Source: a virus
Taxonomy: Duplodnaviria > Heunggongvirae > Uroviricota > Caudoviricetes
Strand: one strand, 5' to 3'
Virus record (IMG/VR): IMGVR_UViG_2778261689_000001
Location: 1 to 64,000 of that record
DNA length: 64,000 bases
Both the position numbers and the translations under genes were made by a program. Below, in pieces: positions 1 to 15,538 of the stretch (position 1 is the stretch's first letter; every line of letters begins with the position of its first letter). The notes under the pieces were generated by a model. That model was not told the DNA's origin and made no database searches. It was given only the letters and a program-made list of their open reading frames with translations.

Positions 1-396
1 TAGCCCCACTGTTCGTCCATTTCCGCGCAGACGATGACGTCACTGCCCGGCTGTATGCGCGAGGTTACCGACTGCGGCCTGAGTTTTTTAAGTGACGTAA
101 AATCGTGTTGAGGCCAACGCCCATAATGCGGGCGGTTGCCCGGCATCCAACGCCATTCATGGCCATATCAATGATTTTCTGGTGCGTACCGGGTTGAGAA
201 GCGGTGTAAGTGAACTGCAGTTGCCATGTTTTACGGCAGTGAGAGCAGAGATAGCGCTGATGTCCGGCAGTGCTTTTGCCGTTACGCACCACCCCGTCAG
301 TAGCTGAACAGGAGGGACAGCTGATAGAAACAGAAGCCACTGGAGCACCTCAAAAACACCATCATACACTAAATCAGTAAGTTGGCAGCATCACCC
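1..396 (-). mobile_element. IS1: IS1 insertion sequence, partial (runs off window start)
   Basis: Canonical InsA frame at 65-340; IS1 terminal inverted repeat (rc of GGTGATGCTGCCAACTTACTGAT) at 374-396; insB portion is cut by the window edge. Confidence 0.95.
65..340 (-). CDS. insA: IS1 InsA transposition regulator (91 aa)
   Basis: Protein [23 protein letters not shown]...LKNSGRSR matches the IS1 InsA sequence as I recall it. Confidence 0.95.
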
Positions 397-441
397 GATG
401 CAGCTTTCGTCAATCATGACAGTTATGAGTTTTCCGGTTAC

Positions 442-765
442 TTATCCATTTTTGCCAGCGTGTTCCGCAACATCTGTTTTACTGTTTACACAGCACTCTT
501 CACGTAAGAATTCGATGATAGCTTCCAGTATTTCGTATTGAGAGACACACATGAGCGTTCGACTCTCCCGGTTTTGTGTGACGAGCCCTACTGATACCAG
601 GGCTGAAATATGATGACTTAACGTTGATGAGGGAATGCCAAGCTGCTTTTGCAATTCACCTACAGGCAAACCTTGTTCTCCAGCTTTTACAAGATGTTTG
701 AATATGAACAAACGGGTCGGGTGACCCAGCTCTTTTAGTGCTTTAGCTACTTCTTCCAGTTGCAT
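442..765 (-). CDS. ArsR/SmtB-family HTH transcriptional regulator
   Basis: 107 aa with winged-helix segment LQKQLGIPSSTLSHHISALVSVGLV and a C-terminal Cys pair (EECCV); divergent from the adjacent permease gene. Confidence 0.7.
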   Translation of the reverse strand: MQLEEVAKALKELGHPTRLFIFKHLVKAGEQGLPVGELQKQLGIPSSTLSHHISALVSVGLVTQNRESRTLMCVSQYEILEAIIEFLREECCVNSKTDVAEHAGKNG

Positions 766-870
766 GTGACAACCCTCTGTCTAATGATATTTCGATAATA
801 CCAGAAATATCTTGACCAGAATTATATTTCGATTATTCTAGAAACGTAGATTTTGTCAAGAGGGTTTAGT
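766..870. promoter_or_regulatory. Divergent promoter/operator region between the ArsR-like and permease genes
   Basis: AT-rich intergenic region containing two copies of ATATTTCGAT(A/T)AT (about 787-800 and 825-838), plausible ArsR-family operator half-sites. Confidence 0.35.
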
Positions 871-2004
871 ATGAATAGTTGGATTTCTATGCTGCAAGAT
901 GCCGCAGAGATGTTTTTGTTTTTGGCCGTCGAGCTATCTTTGCTGTTTATTGTCATCAGTGCCGGTGTGAGCCTGATAAGGCAAAAGGTCCCGGACCATA
1001 AAATCCAGCAATTGATGGGGGCGAAAAAAGGAAAAGGCTACCTGCTGGCCTCGTTGTTGGGAGCCGTTACCCCTTTCTGTAGTTGCTCAACAATTCCAAT
1101 GCTACGAGGGTTGTTGTCGGCGAAAGCAGGGTTTGGTCCGACACTCACTTTTTTGTTTGTTTCACCGTTGCTTAATCCCATTATCGTGGGGTTAATGTGG
1201 GTTACCTTTGGCTGGAAAGTAACTTTGTTGTACGCGATCATCGCTGCCGGTGTCTCAGTCCTTGCCAGTATCGTATTGGATTTACTAGGATTTGAACGTC
1301 ATATTGTTGATCACAAAAACTCAGCATCAAGTGGTTGCACCACGAAATGCGATGATTCCGAAGCTTCGGTAAAAACGTCGGCGGGTTCCAGTTGTTGCAG
1401 CACTAGCTCGACTCAATTGCCTTTAAAAACGAGTTGCTGTACTTCATCAGCGAACCCCATAATTAACTTAAGGACGGTAAAGAACGAGCAGAACGTATCA
1501 GCGTGTTGTTCATCAATATCATCTGAACAACCAGCTGTTAGCTGTTGCAGCAGCGAGAATCTGGGCAATGTGAATCTCACAACGAATACCACCTCTGGCC
1601 CAATAAAGTTAGCTATGAAAGATGCCTTACAGCAGTTTAAGGATGTTCTGCCTTATCTTTTGTTAAGTGTATTAATAGGTTCATTTATTTATGGCTTTAT
1701 CCCTTCAGAGTGGATTGCAGCTCATGCCGGAGCAGATAATCCCTTAGCCATACCGCTGAGTGCAGTTGTTGGTATTCCGTTGTATATCCGCGCAGAGGCA
1801 GTGATACCACTTGCATCAGTGCTGATGACTAAAGGAATGGGCCTGGGGGCATTAATGGCCTTGATAATCGGTAGTGCTGGAGCGAGTTTGACAGAAGTAA
1901 TACTGCTTAAATCAATGTTCAGAATGCCTATGATAGTCGCTTTTCTGACAGTAATCCTGGGTATGGCCATACTTATGGGGTATCTGACCCAATTGCTTTT
2001 TTAA
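871..2004 (+). CDS. Cys-rich polytopic membrane permease (DUF318/ArsP-like)
   Basis: Multiple hydrophobic helices, TPFCSCS motif in an early helix, long Cys/Ser-rich central loop (SCCSTSS, SCCTSS, ACCSS, SCCSS); ATG at 871 preceded by AGAGGG; track ORF starts at 853 on TTG. Confidence 0.6.
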   Translation: MNSWISMLQDAAEMFLFLAVELSLLFIVISAGVSLIRQKVPDHKIQQLMGAKKGKGYLLASLLGAVTPFCSCSTIPMLRGLLSAKAGFGPTLTFLFVSPLLNPIIVGLMWVTFGWKVTLLYAIIAAGVSVLASIVLDLLGFERHIVDHKNSASSGCTTKCDDSEASVKTSAGSSCCSTSSTQLPLKTSCCTSSANPIINLRTVKNEQNVSACCSSISSEQPAVSCCSSENLGNVNLTTNTTSGPIKLAMKDALQQFKDVLPYLLLSVLIGSFIYGFIPSEWIAAHAGADNPLAIPLSAVVGIPLYIRAEAVIPLASVLMTKGMGLGALMALIIGSAGASLTEVILLKSMFRMPMIVAFLTVILGMAILMGYLTQLLF

Positions 2005-2131
2005 TAATAATAGTAAGGGTCTTCTGGTTTCATGTTGAACAAAGAAGACCCTTTAGCTTCTGTAATCCATTTAATCAGTCTGAATGAAATAGATTATAAA
2101 TTCTGCTCTGCATACCTGCTTAACCAAAGTC

Positions 2132-2445
2132 TCATGATTCTGATTGTCGGTACAGTGCCTGAATGTGGCATATCTGGGAGGTGCTGTACCCTGTTGCATC
2201 TGCCGTTTCTTTCTTGACCTGCCGGTAGTAAAGTACCTTTTGATGCCGTTCCTGAGCGACCTGTTTTCCCTGATATTTACCCAGCGTATGTGCGAGTTCA
2301 ACTCCCTGCTTTTGGCGCTGGCGGTCAATTTGCTCGACCAGCAAAATATCATTGCGGTGACTGTCCATCAGTAAGCGACCCAGTTCCGGTCGGTCAAGTT
2401 TTGTACCGCTGATATTCTCCCGGTAGTAACTGGCTATTTTATGCC
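2132..2445 (-). pseudogene. tnpR: Serine recombinase (Tn3-family resolvase) remnant, N-terminally truncated with in-frame stops and a frameshift
   Basis: Minus-strand translation gives ...ERGHKIASYYRENISGTKLDRPELGRLLMDSHRNDILLVEQIDR..., matching the resolvase catalytic-domain pattern (SG...RP.L..LL...D.L.V...DR); TAG codons interrupt the frame upstream and the reading frame shifts after IDR. Confidence 0.5.
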
Positions 2446-2703
2446 CCCGCTCCTAAACAAACTGCTCCAGCATCTCTTTTGCCCGATCGGTGAACTGATC
2501 TTCCGTCTATGCCCTTAAATAAGTGCTGATGAACATTTTTTCACCGCATTACCGCATTTAGGTTATTGCATTTAATCTATCGCATATAGGCTATGTCGTT
2601 CATTGTGTGCCGTCACGTTTAGATTATGGTGTCAGGGTATACCCTTATGCGATAACCATTTTTGTTAAAAATAACGCATCGAATAATTTATGAGGAAAAC
2701 TAT

Positions 2704-5691
2704 ATGGCAAGGAGGCAGATTCTTTCTCTGTCGGAAAGAGAATCATTACTGGCATTACCGGACGATGAGTTAACGCTGACCCGAATGGCCTATTTCAGTG
2801 AGCATGATCTGGCGCTTATCAGTGCTCACCGTAAACCCGCCAGCCGTTTTGGTTTTGCCGTCCTTCTTTGCTATCTGAAAAATGTCGGCTTTGCCCCGGA
2901 TAAAAAAATCTCTCCCTCTGATGCGCTGCTGAAGCATATCGCCAGCAGGCTAAAGCTTACCGGGGATCTCTGGCCTGCTTACCTTTCCGGCCGGGATACG
3001 ACCCGGCGTGAGCATTTAACCGAACTGTACCGCTATCTTGGCGTAAAGGCGTTCACCGGCAAAATACAGCAGGACTGTATTACGCACCTGTTATCGATGG
3101 CGACGCGCACCGATAAAGGCATTCTCCTAGCCGAAGAGTTACTTGTCTATCTCCGGCAGAACAACGTGATAATCCCCGCGATTGATGTCGTGGAGCGTAC
3201 CTGTGCTGAAGTCATGGCAGGCGGCGATAAAATCGTATTTCAGACCCTGAATGCCCCGTTAACTCCGGCTCACAGGGATGCCCTGGATCATTTACTTGAG
3301 TCATCAGATAATCAGCCTTCCAGGCTGACATGGCTTCTGCAACCGCCGGGTAAAATCAATGGTAAGAACGTGCTGCAACATCTTGATCGGCTCAGCAGCA
3401 TTGAATCGCTGGCATTACCTGAAGGTATAGATCGTACCATTCACCAGAACCGGTTGCTGAAACTGGCGCGGGAAGGCCGAAAGATGAGTAGCCGGGATTT
3501 GACCCGATTTTCAGCTGCCCGGCGTCATGCGATCCTGGTGTGCGTGCTGGAAGAAGCCAGAGCCACACTGACAGACGAAGTGATTGAGCTGCATGAGCGA
3601 ATGCTGAATAGTCTTTTCAGCAAAGCCAAACGAACACAGGCTGAGCGCCTTCAGCAGACCGGAAAGCTGATCCAGTCAAAACTGAGGCAGTACATCGATG
3701 TCGGTCAGGCGCTGTCTGATGCCCGTGATTCCGGTGGCGATCCCTGGCTCGCAATAGAAAACATACTCCCATGGGCTGAATTTGTCGCCAGTCTGGATGA
3801 AACACGCCATCTCGCCAGAAAAAATAATTTTGACCCGCTGCATATTATTACCGAGAAATACAGCACATTACGGAAATATGCCCCACGCATGTTGTCCGCT
3901 TTACAGTTAGTCGCAACCCCGGCAGCGCAACCTCTGGCTGATGCACTGGTTGTGATCAAGGATATGTACCGGAAGCAGTCACGTAAAGTTCCGGCGGCAG
4001 CGCCGCTTGAGTTTGTCCCTGAAAGCTGGCGCAAGGTGGTGATTACACCTGTGGGTATTGACCGGCAGTACTATGAGTTTTGTGCACTCAGCGAGCTTAA
4101 GGGGGCGTTGCGCTCCGGGGATATCTGGGTTAAAGGCTCGCGCCGCTACAAAAATTTTGATGATTACCTCATACCCGAGAAGGACTTTGACAAACTCACA
4201 CCGGCACTGCCACTGCCCGTATCTGCTGATTATCATGAGTACATTACCAGCCGTATGACCCTGCTTCAGTCCAGACTTGAAGAGGTCAATGCCATGGCTG
4301 CCCTTGGTGAACTGCCCGATGTGGAAATATCCGACAGGGGCGTAAAAGTCTCTCCGCTGGATAACTGCGTTCCGGCGCAGGTTTCACCGCTGGCAGAGCT
4401 GGTTTACAGCATGCTACCGCGACCTAAAATCACGGAAATTCTCGATGAGGTAAACAGCTGGACGACGTTTACCCGACATTTTTCGCATATAAAAAATGAC
4501 ATTACCCGTCCCGATACCCGCTTGCTCCTCACCACCATTCTTGCGGATGGCATCAATCTTGGCCTGACCAAAATGGCAGAAGCCTGCCCCGGGAGCACCA
4601 AATCATCACTCGAAGATATTCAGGCATGGTACATCCGTGACGAAACCTATTCAGCCGCTCTTGCAGAGCTGGTAAATGCGCAGGGGAAAAGACCGTTGGC
4701 GGCATTTTGGGGAGACGGAACAACGTCATCATCAGATGGACAAAATTTCAGAACCGGCAGCTCAGGCCGCTACGCAGGGCAGGTTAACCCGAAATATGGG
4801 CAAGAGCCTGGACGTCAGTTTTATACCCATATTTCGGATCAATACAGCCCGTTTTACACCTGCATAATCAGTCGGGTCAGGGATTCAACCCATGTTCTCG
4901 ATGGCTTGCTGTACCACGAAAGCGACCTGGAAATCAGGGAACATTACACCGATACCGCTGGTTTCACCGATCATGTCTTTGCCCTGATGCATCTGTTGGG
5001 ATTTGCGTTCTGTCCGCGAATCAGGGATCTCCACGACAAAAAACTGTTTATCAAAGGGAAAGCAGAGAAATACCCGGCGCTTCAGTCACTGATATCAACG
5101 ACCAGCCTGAATCTGAAAGAGATCGAAATCCACTGGCGTGAAGTGCTGCGTCTGGCAACCTCGATAAAGCAGGGAACCGTGACGGCATCCCTGATGCTGA
5201 AAAAGCTTGCCAGCTATCCCAAGCAAAACGGACTTGCCAAAGCACTGAGAGAAATTGGCCGCATTGAGCGAACCCTGTTTATGCTCGACTGGTTCCGCGA
5301 CCCGGCTCTGCGTCGGCGGGTACAGGCGGGGCTGAATAAAGGCGAAGCCCGTAACGCGCTGGCGCGTGCGGTATTTATGCACCGACTGGGAGAAATCAGG
5401 GACAGAAAACCGGAAAATCAGAGCTATCGCGCCAGTGGACTGACGCTGCTGACGGCTGCCATATCCCTGTGGAATACCGTCTATATGGAAAGAGCGGTCG
5501 ATGCCCTGAAGCGTAAAGGGGTGAAGATCAACGAGCAACTGCTGTCGCATTTGTCGCCGTTGGGCTGGGAACACATCAATCTGACAGGTGATTATATCTG
5601 GAAAAGCAACCGGATACCGGCTTCTGGTAAGTTTCGTCGGCTAAGACCAGCTAAAGTCGAAAGGTCAAAAAACAGCCTTAACGTACAATAA
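2704..5691 (+). CDS. tnpA: Tn3-family DDE transposase TnpA (995 aa)
   Basis: Size and N-terminal motif (LSERESLLALPDDELTLTRMAYFSEHDLALISAHRKPASRFGFAVLL) typical of Tn3-family TnpA; ATG at 2704 preceded by GAGGA; stop lies inside the terminal inverted repeat. Confidence 0.9.
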   Translation: MARRQILSLSERESLLALPDDELTLTRMAYFSEHDLALISAHRKPASRFGFAVLLCYLKNVGFAPDKKISPSDALLKHIASRLKLTGDLWPAYLSGRDTTRREHLTELYRYLGVKAFTGKIQQDCITHLLSMATRTDKGILLAEELLVYLRQNNVIIPAIDVVERTCAEVMAGGDKIVFQTLNAPLTPAHRDALDHLLESSDNQPSRLTWLLQPPGKINGKNVLQHLDRLSSIESLALPEGIDRTIHQNRLLKLAREGRKMSSRDLTRFSAARRHAILVCVLEEARATLTDEVIELHERMLNSLFSKAKRTQAERLQQTGKLIQSKLRQYIDVGQALSDARDSGGDPWLAIENILPWAEFVASLDETRHLARKNNFDPLHIITEKYSTLRKYAPRMLSALQLVATPAAQPLADALVVIKDMYRKQSRKVPAAAPLEFVPESWRKVVITPVGIDRQYYEFCALSELKGALRSGDIWVKGSRRYKNFDDYLIPEKDFDKLTPALPLPVSADYHEYITSRMTLLQSRLEEVNAMAALGELPDVEISDRGVKVSPLDNCVPAQVSPLAELVYSMLPRPKITEILDEVNSWTTFTRHFSHIKNDITRPDTRLLLTTILADGINLGLTKMAEACPGSTKSSLEDIQAWYIRDETYSAALAELVNAQGKRPLAAFWGDGTTSSSDGQNFRTGSSGRYAGQVNPKYGQEPGRQFYTHISDQYSPFYTCIISRVRDSTHVLDGLLYHESDLEIREHYTDTAGFTDHVFALMHLLGFAFCPRIRDLHDKKLFIKGKAEKYPALQSLISTTSLNLKEIEIHWREVLRLATSIKQGTVTASLMLKKLASYPKQNGLAKALREIGRIERTLFMLDWFRDPALRRRVQAGLNKGEARNALARAVFMHRLGEIRDRKPENQSYRASGLTLLTAAISLWNTVYMERAVDALKRKGVKINEQLLSHLSPLGWEHINLTGDYIWKSNRIPASGKFRRLRPAKVERSKNSLNVQ

Positions 5692-5714
5692 TTTTCGATA
5701 TCCAAACTGACCCC
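5677..5714. repeat. 38-bp terminal inverted repeat of the Tn3-family element (tnpA-proximal end; outer end at 5714)
   Basis: CTTAACGTACAATAATTTTCGATATCCAAACTGACCCC compared with the recalled Tn3 IR CTTAACGTGAGTTTTCGTTCCACTGAGCGTCAGACCCC: same length, shared CTTAACGT start and GACCCC end. Confidence 0.75.
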
Positions 5715-5837
5715 TGATATTGCGATTCTCGCCAGGCGGGGTCAGCCAACTTTTCCCGTTGCCGAGCGATCGCTCGTTCTCTGGCTGCCTTCTGCCACTC
5801 GCGGCGCTGTTCAAGTTTTTGTTCGATTGTTTTCATA
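5678..5837 (-). pseudogene. P1-backbone ORF whose 3' end was replaced by the transposon inverted repeat (identity unknown)
   Basis: Minus-strand frame MKTIEQKLEQRREWQKAARERAIARQREKLADPAWRESQ... runs into the Tn3-type IR at 5714, so its C-terminus is IR-encoded; a C1-operator-like site lies upstream at 5935-5951. Confidence 0.4.
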
Positions 5838-5841
5838 TGGC

Positions 5842-5867
5842 AAAAAAAAGGCGGCCTAATGGCCGCC
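5842..5867 (-). terminator. Rho-independent terminator hairpin
   Basis: GGCGGCC-TAAT-GGCCGCC stem-loop at 5851-5867 flanked by an A-run on the + strand (T-run on the minus strand). Confidence 0.5.
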
Positions 5868-5934
5868 AATGATGTCAAGGAGTGAAGTAATGGCAACGTC
5901 TTCGTAGTTGACAAAAACTGCGGCTAAATTATAG

Positions 5935-5951
5935 CAATCAATTAGAGCAAT
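5935..5951 (-). promoter_or_regulatory. C1 operator-like site (partial match)
   Basis: ATTAGAGCAAT core (rc of ATTGCTCTAAT) at 5941-5951. Confidence 0.45.
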
Positions 5952-6083
5952 GGCAGATATTTTGTTTATCGCGAATCACATTTTTTCACTTCAGTACCTG
6001 TGTGCTATACTCCTTCTTGATTGATTGGATGCGGAATACAAACCCGCTCTTTTGTGCAGCCTGGCTCCTTGCCAGGCTTTTTT

Positions 6084-6395
6084 TTATTTCATCATGGAAG
6101 CTGTTAACGCTTTGGACCTTGCTGAACTGATTGAAAGGGCATTGTTTACCTTACCCAGGAGTTCGCCAAATTCCCCCATCACTCTAGTAAGCCCGCGCCG
6201 CGCTTCCTCCTCCGTTGCATTCATCACAAAATGTTCAGCACTCCGCATGCTTTTAACGGGGAACGCAACAGATATCGAGTCGATATCAGGCATCCTATCG
6301 CTCAACTTTACGGTGACAATGACAGATGGTGACAGAATATTAGTGCTTACAGACAGCACTACATATTTTCCGTCGATGTTGAAATCCTTTCTCAT
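6084..6395 (-). CDS. Hypothetical protein, C1-operator-controlled, immediately downstream of cre
   Basis: 103-aa ORF; operator-like site directly upstream at 6412-6428. Confidence 0.4.
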   Translation of the reverse strand: MRKDFNIDGKYVVLSVSTNILSPSVIVTVKLSDRMPDIDSISVAFPVKSMRSAEHFVMNATEEEARRGLTRVMGEFGELLGKVNNALSISSARSKALTASMMK

Positions 6396-6411
6396 ATGCC
6401 ACCATAAATAT

Positions 6412-6428
6412 CAAAGAATTAGAGCAAT
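6412..6428 (-). promoter_or_regulatory. C1 operator-like site
   Basis: ATTAGAGCAAT core at 6418-6428. Confidence 0.45.
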
Positions 6429-6445
6429 CATTTACGCGTTAATGG

Positions 6446-7477
6446 CTAATCGCCATCTTCCAGCAGGCGCACCATTGCCCCTGTTTCACTATCCAGGTTA
6501 CGGATATAGTTCATGACAATATTTACATTGGTCCAGCCACCAGCTTGCATGATCTCCGGTATTGAAACTCCAGCGCGGGCCATATCTCGCGCGGCTCCGA
6601 CACGGGCACTGTGTCCAGACCAGGCCAGGTATCTCTGACCAGAGTCATCCTTAGCGCCGTAAATCAATCGATGAGTTGCTTCAAAAATCCCTTCCAGGGC
6701 GCGAGTTGATAGCTGGCTGGTGGCAGATGGCGCGGCAACACCATTTTTTCTGACCCGGCAAAACAGGTAGTTATTAGGATCATCAGCTACACCAGAGACA
6801 GAAATCCATCGCTCGACCAGTTTAGTTACCCCCAGGCTAAGTGCCTTCTCTACACCTGCGGCGCTAACCAGCGTTTTCGTTCTGCCAATATGGATTAACA
6901 TTCTCCCACCGTCAGTACGTGAGATATCTTTAACCCTGATCCTGGCAATTTCTGCTATACGTAGCAGGGTATTATAAGCAATCCCAAGAAATGCCAGATT
7001 ACGTATATCCTGGCAGCGATCGCTATTTTCCATGAGTGAACGAACCTGGTCGAAATCAGTGCGTTCGAACGCCAATGCCTGTTTTGCACGCTCACCGGCA
7101 TCAACGTTTTCTTTTCGGATCCGTCGCATGACCAGTGAAACAGCATTGCTGTCACTTGGTCGTGGCAGCCCGGACCGACGATGAAGCATATTTAGCTGGC
7201 CCAAATGTTGCTGGATAGTTTTTACTGCCAGACCGCGCGCCTGAAGATATAGAAGATAATCGCGAACATCTTCAGGTTCTGCGGGAAACCATTTCCGGTT
7301 ATTCAACTTGCACCATGCCGCCCACGACCGGCAAACGGACAGAAGCATTTTCCAGGTATGCTCAGAAAACGCCTGGCGATCCCTGAACATGTCCATCAGG
7401 TTCTTGCGAACCTCATCACTCGTTGCATCGACCGGTAATGCAGGCAAATTTTGGTGTACGGTCAGTAAATTGGACAT
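6446..7477 (-). CDS. cre: Cre site-specific tyrosine recombinase (343 aa)
   Basis: Protein MSNLLTVHQNLPALPVDATSDEVRKNLMDMFRDRQAFSEHTWKMLLSVCRSWAAWCKLNNRKWFPAEPEDVRDYLLYLQARGLAVKTIQQHLGQLNMLHRRSGLPRPSDSNAVSLVMRRIRKENVDAGERAKQALAFERTDFDQVRSLMENSDRCQDIRNLAFLGIAYNTLLRIAEIARIRVKDISRTDGGRMLIHIGRTKTLVSAAGVEKALSLGVTKLVERWISVSGVADDPNNYLFCRVRKNGVAAPSATSQLSTRALEGIFEATHRLIYGAKDDSGQRYLAWSGHSARVGAARDMARAGVSIPEIMQAGGWTNVNIVMNYIRNLDSETGAMVRLLEDGD is recognisably Cre (essentially identical to the sequence as I recall it); loxP lies 420 bp upstream. Confidence 0.97.
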   Translation of the reverse strand: MSNLLTVHQNLPALPVDATSDEVRKNLMDMFRDRQAFSEHTWKMLLSVCRSWAAWCKLNNRKWFPAEPEDVRDYLLYLQARGLAVKTIQQHLGQLNMLHRRSGLPRPSDSNAVSLVMRRIRKENVDAGERAKQALAFERTDFDQVRSLMENSDRCQDIRNLAFLGIAYNTLLRIAEIARIRVKDISRTDGGRMLIHIGRTKTLVSAAGVEKALSLGVTKLVERWISVSGVADDPNNYLFCRVRKNGVAAPSATSQLSTRALEGIFEATHRLIYGAKDDSGQRYLAWSGHSARVGAARDMARAGVSIPEIMQAGGWTNVNIVMNYIRNLDSETGAMVRLLEDGD

Positions 7478-8630: not shown

Positions 8631-9482
8631 ATGATAAATTATGTCTACGGCGAACAACTGTACCAGGAGTTCGTCAGCTTCAGGGATCTCTTTCTAAAAA
8701 AAGCTGTTGCACGCGCCCAACACGTTGATACAGCCAGCGACGGTCGTCCTGTACGCCCGGTTGTCGTTCTACCGTTCAAAGAAACTGACAGCATTCAGGC
8801 TGAAATTGATAAATGGACTTTAATGGCGCGGGAACTGGAACAGTACCCAGACCTCAATATCCCAAAGACTATTTTATATCCAGTGCCTAACATCCTTCGC
8901 GGTGTGCGTAAGGTTACAACTTATCAGACAGAGGCTGTGAACAGCGTCAACATGACCGCTGGCCGCATTATTCATCTGATTGATAAGGACATTCGCATCC
9001 AAAAAAGCGCGGGGATCAATGAGCACAGTGCGAAATACATAGAGAACCTGGAAGCAACAAAAGAGCTAATGAAGCAGTACCCGGAGGATGAAAAATTCCG
9101 TATGCGCGTACACGGCTTTAGCGAAACAATGCTGCGCGTCCACTACATTTCCAGTAGCCCTAACTACAATGATGGTAAATCAGTTAGTTACCATGTGCCA
9201 CTGTGTGGCGTGTTTATCTGCGATGAAACTCTCCGTGATGGAATTATCATCAACGGTGAATTCGAAAAAGCAAAATTTAGCCTTTATGACTCCATAGAAC
9301 CGATCATCTGCGACCGCTGGCCGCAAGCAAAAATATATCGCCTGGCAGATATTGAAAATGTAAAAAAACAAATTGCCATCACTCGCGAAGAGAAAAAGGT
9401 TAAGTCAGCCGCATCAGTTACGCGCAGCCGTAAAACCAAGAAGGGGCAGCCAGTAAACGACAACCCCGAAAGCGCGCAATAA
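8631..9482 (+). CDS. c1: C1 primary immunity repressor (283 aa)
   Basis: 283 aa, starts MINYVYGEQLYQEFVSFRDLFLKK; size, N-terminus and coi-upstream/operator context match P1 C1. Confidence 0.85.
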   Translation: MINYVYGEQLYQEFVSFRDLFLKKAVARAQHVDTASDGRPVRPVVVLPFKETDSIQAEIDKWTLMARELEQYPDLNIPKTILYPVPNILRGVRKVTTYQTEAVNSVNMTAGRIIHLIDKDIRIQKSAGINEHSAKYIENLEATKELMKQYPEDEKFRMRVHGFSETMLRVHYISSSPNYNDGKSVSYHVPLCGVFICDETLRDGIIINGEFEKAKFSLYDSIEPIICDRWPQAKIYRLADIENVKKQIAITREEKKVKSAASVTRSRKTKKGQPVNDNPESAQ

Positions 9483-9514: not shown

Positions 9515-10633
9515 TTATTCAGCCGCCACCGGTTTTAACAAGCCAGCATCGAGCAGTTTACGCGTCAACCACTGCTGGCCTTTACCCGTTAATTGAGGCG
9601 TCAACCGTATCTGGTAGCCATCTTCATCATCCAGCACCACTTCTTTCACCGTGAAATACCCCGCGTTGATGTACTGCTGGAACGGCACATTTTTACGTCC
9701 ACCGGACGCTATCAGGATGCCGTTCTCCCGTAACCAGACAAACAGCGCGTTTTGCTTAAGTCCAACAACCTTTGCAAAATTCCCAATCAGGATCCCTTTA
9801 GCTACTGATACCCGGTCGGCAAAATCGACCTTAGGAGCGGCGGCCACCAGCTGCTGATTTAGCTGGTGGGCTTTCTGTTCCAGAAGCTGCTTTTGTTCAG
9901 CCAGTTCGGCAGCCAGGCGTAGGGCTTCTGGTAATGTTTGGGGGATTGCAACCGGTTGCTGTTCTTTTTGCCGGAAGTAGCTGTCTTCCAGTTTTTCAAA
10001 GAATGCCCATGCCTGATCGGTTTCGAGCATTTTAGCGTGGCGGGCTGCGCCGCGTTCTGTCCAGAGGGTGAGTGAGCGAACATTGCGAGCAATTTTTACA
10101 GAGTAGTTTAAAGCTACTCTGTGCTTCAACTCGCGCAATGATTCTCCTTCAACTTTGAAAAAGTGCTTCCCTTCAACAAAGCGTACTTTGTTCTCATGAT
10201 GATTTTGGCGAATACGGATTGTTTCTGTCCCATACCCTCTAGCAAGAGTCTCGGTTGTCACTACACGCACTCCCTGCCATTCCAGAACGGGAATTTCATC
10301 AGACTGATTCTGAACAACCACCAGCTCCGATTCCTGAACTGAAGGTGCATGAATTTTTTCTGATTTAACGTTAGTTGCTTTCATTCTGTGTGCCTCCTTG
10401 CGTGCTTCGGCTGCGACGGTTGCGTAATTCAGATGACCCTGTTCGAGCAGGTATTCGCGGATATCAGACAACAGGATACGGTGAACCGCGTTCTTGTCCT
10501 TTCTCCGGTAAAGTTGTTTGGTGATCATGAAGTAGTTGGCAATAACGCCTGGTATATCCCTGGTACTGATACAGGCAGTGTGCTGTTCAATTGCCTCGAT
10601 CATCTCTTCACGGGTAACTAACGATGTTCTCAT
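9515..10633 (-). CDS. Antirepressor-like protein (372 aa): N-terminal domain paralogous to ORF 60798-61841, central Bro-N-like segment, C-terminal Ant/KilAC-type domain
   Basis: C-terminal ...IPQTLPEALRLAAELAEQKQ...KVDFADRVSVAKGILIGNFAKVVGLKQNALF...GKGQQWLTRKLLDAGLLKPVA is shared with ORFs 60798-61841 and 59833-60633; start overlaps the icd-like stop (ATGA). Confidence 0.7.
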   Translation of the reverse strand: MRTSLVTREEMIEAIEQHTACISTRDIPGVIANYFMITKQLYRRKDKNAVHRILLSDIREYLLEQGHLNYATVAAEARKEAHRMKATNVKSEKIHAPSVQESELVVVQNQSDEIPVLEWQGVRVVTTETLARGYGTETIRIRQNHHENKVRFVEGKHFFKVEGESLRELKHRVALNYSVKIARNVRSLTLWTERGAARHAKMLETDQAWAFFEKLEDSYFRQKEQQPVAIPQTLPEALRLAAELAEQKQLLEQKAHQLNQQLVAAAPKVDFADRVSVAKGILIGNFAKVVGLKQNALFVWLRENGILIASGGRKNVPFQQYINAGYFTVKEVVLDDEDGYQIRLTPQLTGKGQQWLTRKLLDAGLLKPVAAE

Positions 10634-14494: not shown

Positions 14495-15538
14495 TTATCT
14501 AACGCTCGACGAGTGACTTGTGATAGCGCCGACTCCAAGCGCGTAATCAAAGAACAATCGTTGATGCATCGCCAGCCTACCGTGCGTCTTCTCCCAATTA
14601 TCGCGGTCACGCTCAATATCACGCTGGCATGACTGGCACAGAGGAATAGCATAAATGTCATGCGCGCATAATCGACTATGACGAACGATATAAGGCGTAA
14701 TGTGAGCGCCAGCTCCCGCAGCTCCACAGCCACAGCATGGACGGGAAGCCACAAAGTCCATGTACTCGGGCAATTTTAGCGATTGAAGTTTTGGTATTTT
14801 GAAATGCGCCATACCTGGGTCGGAGTCAACATCCACAGGGCATACTTTTGCACGCATCGGCGCGGCGCGTTCTTCCATCATCTGAACATATGCTGTAGCG
14901 CGATCGTCATACGGGCGAATATCCGCCTCTTTCAGAGGTCCGCTATCCTGCGGAGTAGCCTTCATCTTATTTATTGATATGCGGCAGACTTCTTCCGGCA
15001 TCAGGTGCATCATGTTGCGCATGAAAGCCCACCAGCACAGCTCCTGAATACTTAAATCATGGCTATTTGAAAGGCCCATTTCCTGACGGGCGACATCCAG
15101 TATCCAGTTAACGCGATTATTGTGCAGCGTTTCTTTCAGCTCATTAAAACCACGCATCCGGTAATGGTTATCGTGATGCCAGCACAACAACACCGCGCTA
15201 TTGTCTCGTTCTGCGTGGACAATATGGTTGTCACACCAGCTACGATCTGCGGCCTGGCATTGCCCCTCTTTCCTGCGCAACCACGCCACCAGCGAGTCAA
15301 TTCCACCAATACGGCGAAACAGTTCATCGCTGTTAAAAAACGGCTGCAACGCCTCATTTGTTGCCATGGTTTGCTCGGTAACAACGAGGCCGTCTTCCAT
15401 GTGCTCGATTAACTCACGCGGCACCGGCTCCATAATAAATTTACGGCCAGCCTCCACCAGCTTTCTGACTTCCTGATCCACTTTGAATGTGGCGACGCCA
15501 AGCTCTTTTTGTACAAAGGGAGTAATTACGGCTTTCAC
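14495..15538 (-). CDS. Cys-rich hypothetical protein (PdcB-like by position)
   Basis: 347 aa with CxxC pairs (CCGCG, CQSCQ); lies between doc and lpa. Confidence 0.4.

Follow-up and report, generated by a model that had tools for sequence, protein, structure and literature searches.

A module designated delta-IS1-TnEc1 has been reported in resistance plasmids (PMC9412624), and a gene pair annotated as 'arsR and arsP', of the same kind as the pair considered here, lies beside tet(A) on virulence plasmids of Salmonella Typhimurium (PMC9484752). The Campylobacter jejuni permease ArsP is an efflux protein for methylarsenite (MAs(III)) and the trivalent form of roxarsone (Rox(III)); As(III) is not among its substrates (PMC6205960). 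In P1-like phage-plasmids, the genes for Ref, Icd-like proteins and restriction-modification subunits are among the families found next to or near resistance-gene insertions, and a few loci are favoured (PMC9600943). We analysed positions 1–64,000 of the IMG/VR virus record IMGVR_UViG_2778261689_000001 (the window), which has a P1-like (IncY-type) phage-plasmid backbone and begins with a Tn3-family element carrying an ArsR-family regulator gene, arsR2, and a divergent permease gene. All coordinates are window coordinates unless P1 or another locus is named, and L numbers denote the individual loci compared. Our analysis indicates that window 1–5714, a stretch of 5.7 kb, is quite probably the right-hand portion of a TnEc1-like Tn3-family transposon of mosaic structure, 6,394 bp in length, inserted in the non-essential backbone gene ref.

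TnEc1-like elements, for example on p6BC1_mcr-9 (LC735981), have the same tnpR-tnpA layout as the window element and are 92–95% identical to it in tnpA, the tnpR-tnpA intergenic res region and the terminal inverted repeats (IRs), but there the 213-aa TnpR is intact and the passengers are different, namely a CDF transporter and, in L021, sulP-uspA. The term TnEc1-like follows ISfinder-style naming, by likeness to an element whose transposase one depositor labelled TnEc1 (94.5% identical over window 2322–5683) and not to a TnEc1 reference sequence. Identical units are found elsewhere. Those on pAPEC-O2-211A-ColV (NZ_CP030791; L037), an Escherichia albertii IncF plasmid (NZ_CP024287; L002), p4M8F (L036), pCP53-38k and the P1-like plasmid p2017.15.03CC (NZ_LC511659; L001) match window 396–5714 at 99.96–100.00%, the first two without a single mismatch over 5,319 bp. 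Their IS1/arsR junction, dead tnpR, tnpA and IR are all as in the window, and only the insertion site differs. When a 5.4-kb query was used, at least 80% of its length was held by 115 PLSDB plasmids, and 1,297 records had matches of at least 99% identity. Many enterobacterial plasmids already sequenced carry the element in unaltered form, and it is common mobile plasmid cargo. One plasmid cited for delta-IS1-TnEc1, pKqq_18A069_2, was uninformative, having only one IR beside an IS1 end.

Complete units always measure 6,394 bp from IR to IR, with the left IR (IRL) located 307 bp beyond IS1, an arrangement present in six of the eight related loci inspected. Consequently, IS1 sits inside the transposon. 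As a criterion we used the Tn3-family IR pattern, about 38 bp of the form GGGG...ACGTTAAG at both ends. The right IR of the window (IRR; 38 bp at 5677–5714, minus strand, reverse complement GGGGTCAGTTTGGATATCGAAAATTATTGTACGTTAAG) is identical at 38 of 38 positions to the opposite-end IR of complete copies. A preliminary description of the locus had noticed this repeat and had seen no second one before IS1; our search, extended to the whole 64-kb window and allowing up to 10 mismatches, likewise found none. Its suggestion that the other end lies outside the window is the most probable one, given the position of IRL in the related loci.

Target duplications of 5–6 bp flank the unit at three sites: TCCCTG (6 bp) in p2017.15.03CC, AGATA in p4M8F, where an HNH endonuclease gene is split, and ATAAT in pAPEC-O2-211A-ColV. 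A further duplication, TTTCT, lies inside the ref gene of pLR-13_1, whose unit has kept both IRs and was later split in its interior by inserted resistance DNA. Duplications are absent in L002 and L035. The presence of IRs and target duplications at different sites shows that the IS1-containing unit transposes as a whole, and the initial view of the element as a transposon remnant is therefore not sustained. Based on these sequence signatures, we conclude that the 6,394-bp unit is an active transposon.

We read the order of the unit as IRL, 269 bp, IS1, arsR2, ArsP-type permease, dead tnpR, res region, tnpA and IRR. The window begins within IS1, of which it holds the right-hand 395 bp (1–395, minus strand; insA at 65–340, terminal IR ATCAGTAAGTTGGCAGCATCACC at 373–395). 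The passenger segment follows at 396–2094, consisting of the regulator, an operator region, the permease and a 90-bp tail, with homology to the flank of a Salmonella ars island. The tnpA gene (2704–5691, plus strand) encodes an intact 995-aa Tn3-family transposase that matches NF033527 at 1129.5 bits (cutoff 500) over profile positions 2–954 of 954, PF01526 (DDE_Tnp_Tn3) at 5e-148, and DUF4158; the protein is identical to WP_000124023.1, which is found in many plasmids. The tnpR gene (2132–2536, minus strand) is a resolvase pseudogene. Aligned to the intact 213-aa TnpR of L026, it has stop codons in place of the catalytic Ser10 and of Gln28 and has lost about 74 codons in frame, plus a further 4, and identical copies carry the annotation 'recombinase family protein, internal stop'. 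The functional resolvase of Tn3-family transposons is thus missing from this element. The tnpR-tnpA intergenic region (2537–2703), where the res region is expected, has been kept; it falls within a 399-bp alignment (2322–2720) that is 89% identical to L026, the element labelled TnEc1. Both the intact tnpA and the decayed resolvase had been recognized correctly at the outset. TnpA would act on the two 38-bp IRs to bring about replicative transposition with a 5-bp target duplication, and because the resolvase is dead, resolution of cointegrates would be left to host recombination.

At its right end the element runs into a backbone open reading frame (ORF), as first described, and we identify this ORF as ref. 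The insertion cuts the gene after its first 122 nt (5715–5836, minus strand, start at 5836), which abut the IR, and a 78-aa ORF at 5678–5914 combines ref codons with sequence of the IR. Alignment to P1 places the insertion point at P1 coordinate ~2199, inside ref. P1 1–2199, comprising lox, cra, cre, c8 and the start of ref, aligns in reverse to window 7912–5714 at 96.7% identity, and the Salmonella phage-plasmid SJ46 matches the window from 5714 onward at 99.5% (99.5–99.6% over ref-c8-cre). The order of genes in P1 is cre, c8, ref (2077–2637), mat (2716–3468), res (3544–6456), mod, lxc, ulx and darB. With mat standing between ref and res, a junction in ref means that the element is not at the res/mod locus, and the earlier proposal that it occupies the place of these type III restriction-modification genes is contradicted by the alignment.

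The arrangement of this region in related plasmids suggests what probably lies beyond the left edge of the window. SJ46, the closest relative, has, in order, darB-like genes, ulx, lxc, a RelA/SpoT-family gene, mat, an insertion of Tn1721 with CTX-M-27, and ref, with no res/mod. Both halves of ref are kept around the insertion in pLR-13_1 and in Escherichia coli S30 plasmid C, where mat is also annotated, and both plasmids continue into the lxc-ulx-darB backbone, again with no res/mod. The order in p2017.15.03CC is lxc, a DUF3944 gene, a helix-turn-helix gene, the transposon, an icd-like gene, two further genes and ref. The insertion in SJ46, which carries blaCTX-M-27, is also of the Tn3 family, but it is a different transposon and lies between mat and ref, downstream of ref, whereas the one in the window lies inside ref, a locus that is a known plastic spot. 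For this molecule, the likeliest history would be that the transposon simply inserted into ref, in a lineage without EcoP1I at that position from the start. The left IR, beginning GGGGTCAGTTTGG..., and the rest of ref should then, to judge from relatives, lie some 680 bp beyond the left edge of the window, and TGATA at 5715–5719 would be the target duplication.

Two observations weigh against a complete unit in this molecule. The exact IR/ref junction of the window has no record in PLSDB, complete E. coli genomes, or viral or metagenome contigs, and in two of the eight related loci (L019 and L034) the DNA left of the IS1/arsR junction has been replaced by Tn1721-type DNA with no IRL, so that the window copy could be truncated as well. 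It would in that case be an immobile fragment whose left-hand DNA was replaced by resistance modules (Tn1721, TnAs1 or IS26 arrays), as on pPSS-04_1 or pX14-3-tetA, and all that the window shows would be the right margin of a more extensive multiresistance region beside ref. Accretion of resistance DNA at this locus has been described for P1-like plasmids (PMC9600943). Among the related loci, L019 has a truncated IS1 and then Tn1721 DNA, TnAs1 cuts arsR in L020, and 19 kb of resistance DNA is inserted within the unit in L017/L038. Set against this, the IS1 at the window edge is intact over at least 395 bp and its junction matches that of complete units, and IRL is kept in the majority of inspected relatives that have this junction (the six of eight given above). 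We therefore consider truncation a serious contender, though an unlikely one, and retain the reading of a complete TnEc1-like unit inserted in ref. It is highly improbable, by comparison, that a remnant bounded by P1's resident IS1 replaced the DNA from ref to IS1 and thereby deleted EcoP1I res/mod and the rest of the interval. IS1 elements can cause adjacent deletions, and such a history would fit the single IR of the window, as well as its lack of any Res homologue and of any P1 0–34 kb sequence apart from IS1 and the aligned 1–2199; the lack of a Res homologue shows only that the region lies outside the window.

The evidence from IS1 itself is opposed to such a replacement, as IS1 lies within a unit that has IRs and target duplications at its ends, and the identical IS1/arsR junction occurs on IncF, IncX1, IncHI1B and ColV plasmids. 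P1's own IS1 (P1 22,626–23,393, between isaA and isaB) has the opposite orientation relative to the cre region, the wrong end would be adjacent, and the window segment has 5 mismatches to it, versus 1 to the IS1 of the L002 and L037 units. Furthermore, a ref-to-IS1 deletion in P1 would also take prt, pro and lyz, and SJ46-type relatives are natively without res/mod. The IS1 at the window edge was thus mistaken for the landmark IS1 of P1, and a loss of the restriction system is not attributable to the element, with SJ46 natively lacking res/mod and two analogous plasmids keeping the ref halves and backbone. The value of these comparisons is mostly corrective: the element is not evidence that the phage-plasmid lost its restriction system.

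The mosaic structure of the TnEc1-like unit can be traced at both edges of its passenger segment. The IS1 in the unit (L001 5233–6000, the same IS1 as window 1–395) has no target duplication around it and joins sulP-upstream DNA on its left to arsR2-downstream DNA on its right; to its left stand IRL and the 269-bp stretch, which in a Citrobacter plasmid runs on into sulP-uspA. An IS1 that joins unrelated DNA without a duplication points to a deletion or recombination junction and not to a simple insertion. We looked for a transposon copy without IS1 and found none. On the other side, window 395–2094 is 86% identical to a Salmonella chromosome with the order arsR-arsD-arsA-arsB-arsC, arsH, arsR2 and permease. 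In Salmonella (L028 7224–7262; L029), the homology ends at the base matching window 2094, and directly after it comes the first G of a left IR, which belongs to a related transposon that carries a TauE-family gene, tnpR and tnpA; the window sequence instead enters the 3′ end of tnpR at position 2095. An IR that abuts the exact end of the homology suggests how the pair was captured, presumably from the distal end of an ars island. On the simplest reading, a TnEc1-like element once located beside the ars island may have lost its own left IR and passengers, and may then have mobilised the neighbouring regulator-permease pair by means of another IRL supplied through the IS1 junction.

The ArsR-family regulator noted earlier is confirmed. 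The arsR2 gene (442–765, minus strand) encodes a 107-aa ArsR/SmtB-family repressor with Cys73, Cys91 and Cys92, which matches HTH_20 at 8e-15, HTH_5, and the ArsR/SmtB model NF033788 at 63.2 bits (cutoff 55). Its best solved relative is AfArsR (PDB 6J05; E 1.8e-11), followed by YgaV. AfArsR binds As(III) through Cys95, Cys96 and Cys102, while SpArsR, without the third cysteine, is specific for methylarsenite (PMC13236881). Cys91-Cys92 of ArsR2 align with the CC pair of AfArsR, and ArsR2, like SpArsR, has no cysteine at the AfArsR Cys102 position. Unlike both proteins, whose arsenical-binding cysteines are C-terminal, ArsR2 has the additional Cys73, and all three of its cysteines are invariant in 13 homologues, from Escherichia to Desulfovibrionaceae.

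Between arsR2 and the permease gene are two operator-like repeats of 25 nt (783–807 and 820–844), each an imperfect palindrome, which flank or overlap divergent promoter-like hexamers (TTGACC at 812–817 and TTGACA at 859–854). The motif ATTTCGAT.AT.C.AGAAAT of the two copies, which surround a TTGAC −35, has been conserved over a range that extends from Escherichia and Aeromonas to metagenome-assembled genomes (MAGs) of Desulfovibrionaceae. The conservation of operator and cysteines was compared over window 766–870 and loci L024, L025, L029, L007, L009–L011, L014 and L031. Conservation of an operator and of regulator cysteines at this level is unusual for an uncharacterised two-gene module.

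The divergent permease, with its TPFCSCS motif and cysteine-rich loop, was also found as first described. Its gene (871–2004, plus strand; the ORF finder placed a TTG start at 853) encodes a 377-aa protein of family PF03773 (ArsP_1; 3.3e-53, 181.2 bits, cutoff 32.3). The motif supplies Cys70 and Cys72, both invariant in 23 homologues, and a loop of about 100 residues (residues ~140–245) holds 10 further cysteines, arranged as one CxxxC and four CC pairs. Across homologues the membrane core is ~70–90% conserved, while the loop varies in length and is always rich in cysteines with CC pairs. The homologues are annotated plainly as 'permease' and are encoded on chromosomes of E. fergusonii, some E. 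coli, Salmonella, Citrobacter and Aeromonas. A literature search on the protein accessions found nothing, and a PDB sequence search with the permease found no solved relative at E ≤ 1. An AlphaFold model built from a 23-sequence alignment (mean predicted local distance difference test score 41, predicted template modelling score 0.24) is unusable for fold comparison and gives in outline only two helical halves around a disordered loop.

ArsP of C. jejuni, like the permease a member of PF03773, is among the closest known systems. According to Chen et al. in 2015, ArsP reportedly has two essential conserved cysteines, and its cysteine pair is said to lie in the N-terminal membrane domain, where Cys70 and Cys72 would be the counterpart. 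Control by an ArsR, predicted for the permease, and linkage to ars operons, seen for its homologues, are further points of likeness to ArsP. The permease clade differs from ArsP in its variable CC-rich loop of about 100 residues, and the pair differs in being carried on a transposon apart from all other ars genes.

The genomic context of the pair provides the main indication of its function. The divergent regulator accompanies the permease always among the loci compared, and at least five different arrangements place the pair next to ars genes. In Escherichia and Shigella it follows arsRBC, in Buttiauxella it is convergent with arsRBC and arsH lies close by, in a Pseudomonas MAG it follows arsA-arsB, in Aeromonas rivipollensis it adjoins arsD-arsA, in Salmonella it follows arsRDABC-arsH, and in a Citrobacter prophage it comes after arsRDABC. 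Together with the regulator cysteines, this context makes the putative metal(loid) or organoarsenical exporter of the preliminary description the best-supported function, and the pair is likely to be an arsenical-responsive efflux system. An ArsR2 dimer would bind the two 25-nt repeats over the divergent promoters and repress both; binding of a trivalent arsenical to Cys91-Cys92, possibly with Cys73, would release it from DNA, and the permease would then export the arsenical, with Cys70-x-Cys72 and the cysteine-rich loop probably involved. The ArsP precedent makes MAs(III) or Rox(III) the leading candidate substrate. Specificity for trivalent organoarsenicals we hold possible rather than probable.

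Several findings weigh against an arsenical function. The pair stands alone, without ars genes, in Aeromonas veronii and Desulfovibrionaceae, and no ars structural gene is carried alongside it on the transposon. The AMRFinderPlus and RGI predictions in PLSDB do not flag the pair. The permease's only NCBIfam matches, and thus its nearest families, are the SO_0444 Cu/Zn exporter (116.6 bits) and SaoE (87.2 bits). The pair could accordingly export a non-arsenical thiophilic species, whether Cu, Zn, Cd or Hg cations or a reactive sulfur compound, and the weak similarity of the regulator to BigR and CmtR, the second-best solved relative YgaV and the capacity of a CC-rich loop to bind soft metal cations would all be compatible with such a substrate. 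However, the scores for SO_0444, SaoE, BigR and CmtR are all far below their cutoffs (300, 325, 155 and 150 bits, respectively), so that the permease does not qualify for either the SO_0444 or the SaoE family; the regulator's best solved relative is an As(III)-responsive ArsR with its cysteine pair aligned; and the repeated placement beside ars genes includes arsH. A non-arsenical substrate therefore appears improbable, and export of arsenicals remains the favoured function.

Taken further, the arsR2-permease pair may represent a distinct arsenical efflux clade, perhaps specific for trivalent organoarsenicals such as methylarsenite and reduced roxarsone, that goes unflagged by standard resistome pipelines and is spread by an IS1-bearing TnEc1-like transposon; we offer this combined proposal tentatively. 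If it is true, arsenical exposure could co-select multiresistance plasmids and phage-plasmids of E. coli and Salmonella. The pair rides an active transposon on well over a hundred sequenced resistance plasmids, and would be an overlooked co-selection marker if it confers resistance.

Further observations concern the surroundings of ref. In at least six P1-like plasmids (L017, L018, L019, L020, L001 and the window), the transposon's right IR stands at differing positions in or near ref: SJ46-locus positions 15532, 15489, ~15414 and 15198, the mat-ref spacer, and one site 2.2 kb away. The shared orientation of the right IR among these plasmids is a search artefact, as the query could find only that orientation. 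We rejected nested deletions from the right IR into ref as a general cause of the differing offsets, because pLR-13_1 has a clean 5-bp duplication and both ref halves, E. coli S30 plasmid C has both halves with a 5–6 bp overlap, and p2017.15.03CC has its own duplication at another site. The element in S30 plasmid C (NZ_CP010234; L040 6561–6598, L018) is a hybrid transposon that shares tnpA and the right IR with the window element but has another left IR (GGGCTCCGTTTGGGAAACGGAAGATATTGTACGTTAAG) and carries an MBL-fold hydrolase, a GlxA regulator and an ester cyclase as cargo; it is inserted in ref, with both halves kept and with flanks that overlap by 5–6 bp. In the window, the C1-controlled ref promoters and Oref are retained at 5869–5951 (transferred from P1 1962–2044), and they now point into the right IR, antisense to tnpA.

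Beyond ref, the backbone continues with c8 (6084–6395, minus strand), cre (6446–7477, minus strand) and c1 (8631–9482), and P1-like plasmids match the window at 98–99% in its far half. The P1-like backbone also carries a type V autotransporter that has no counterpart in P1, encoded by a 2,635-aa ORF at 17931–25838 (minus strand); its features are an ESPR extended signal peptide, a PATR repeat and an AC_1 autochaperone domain. Directly after c1, an ORF at 9515–10633 (minus strand) has ORF6N and KilAC/ANT antirepressor domains, and similar genes lie beside c1 in related plasmids.

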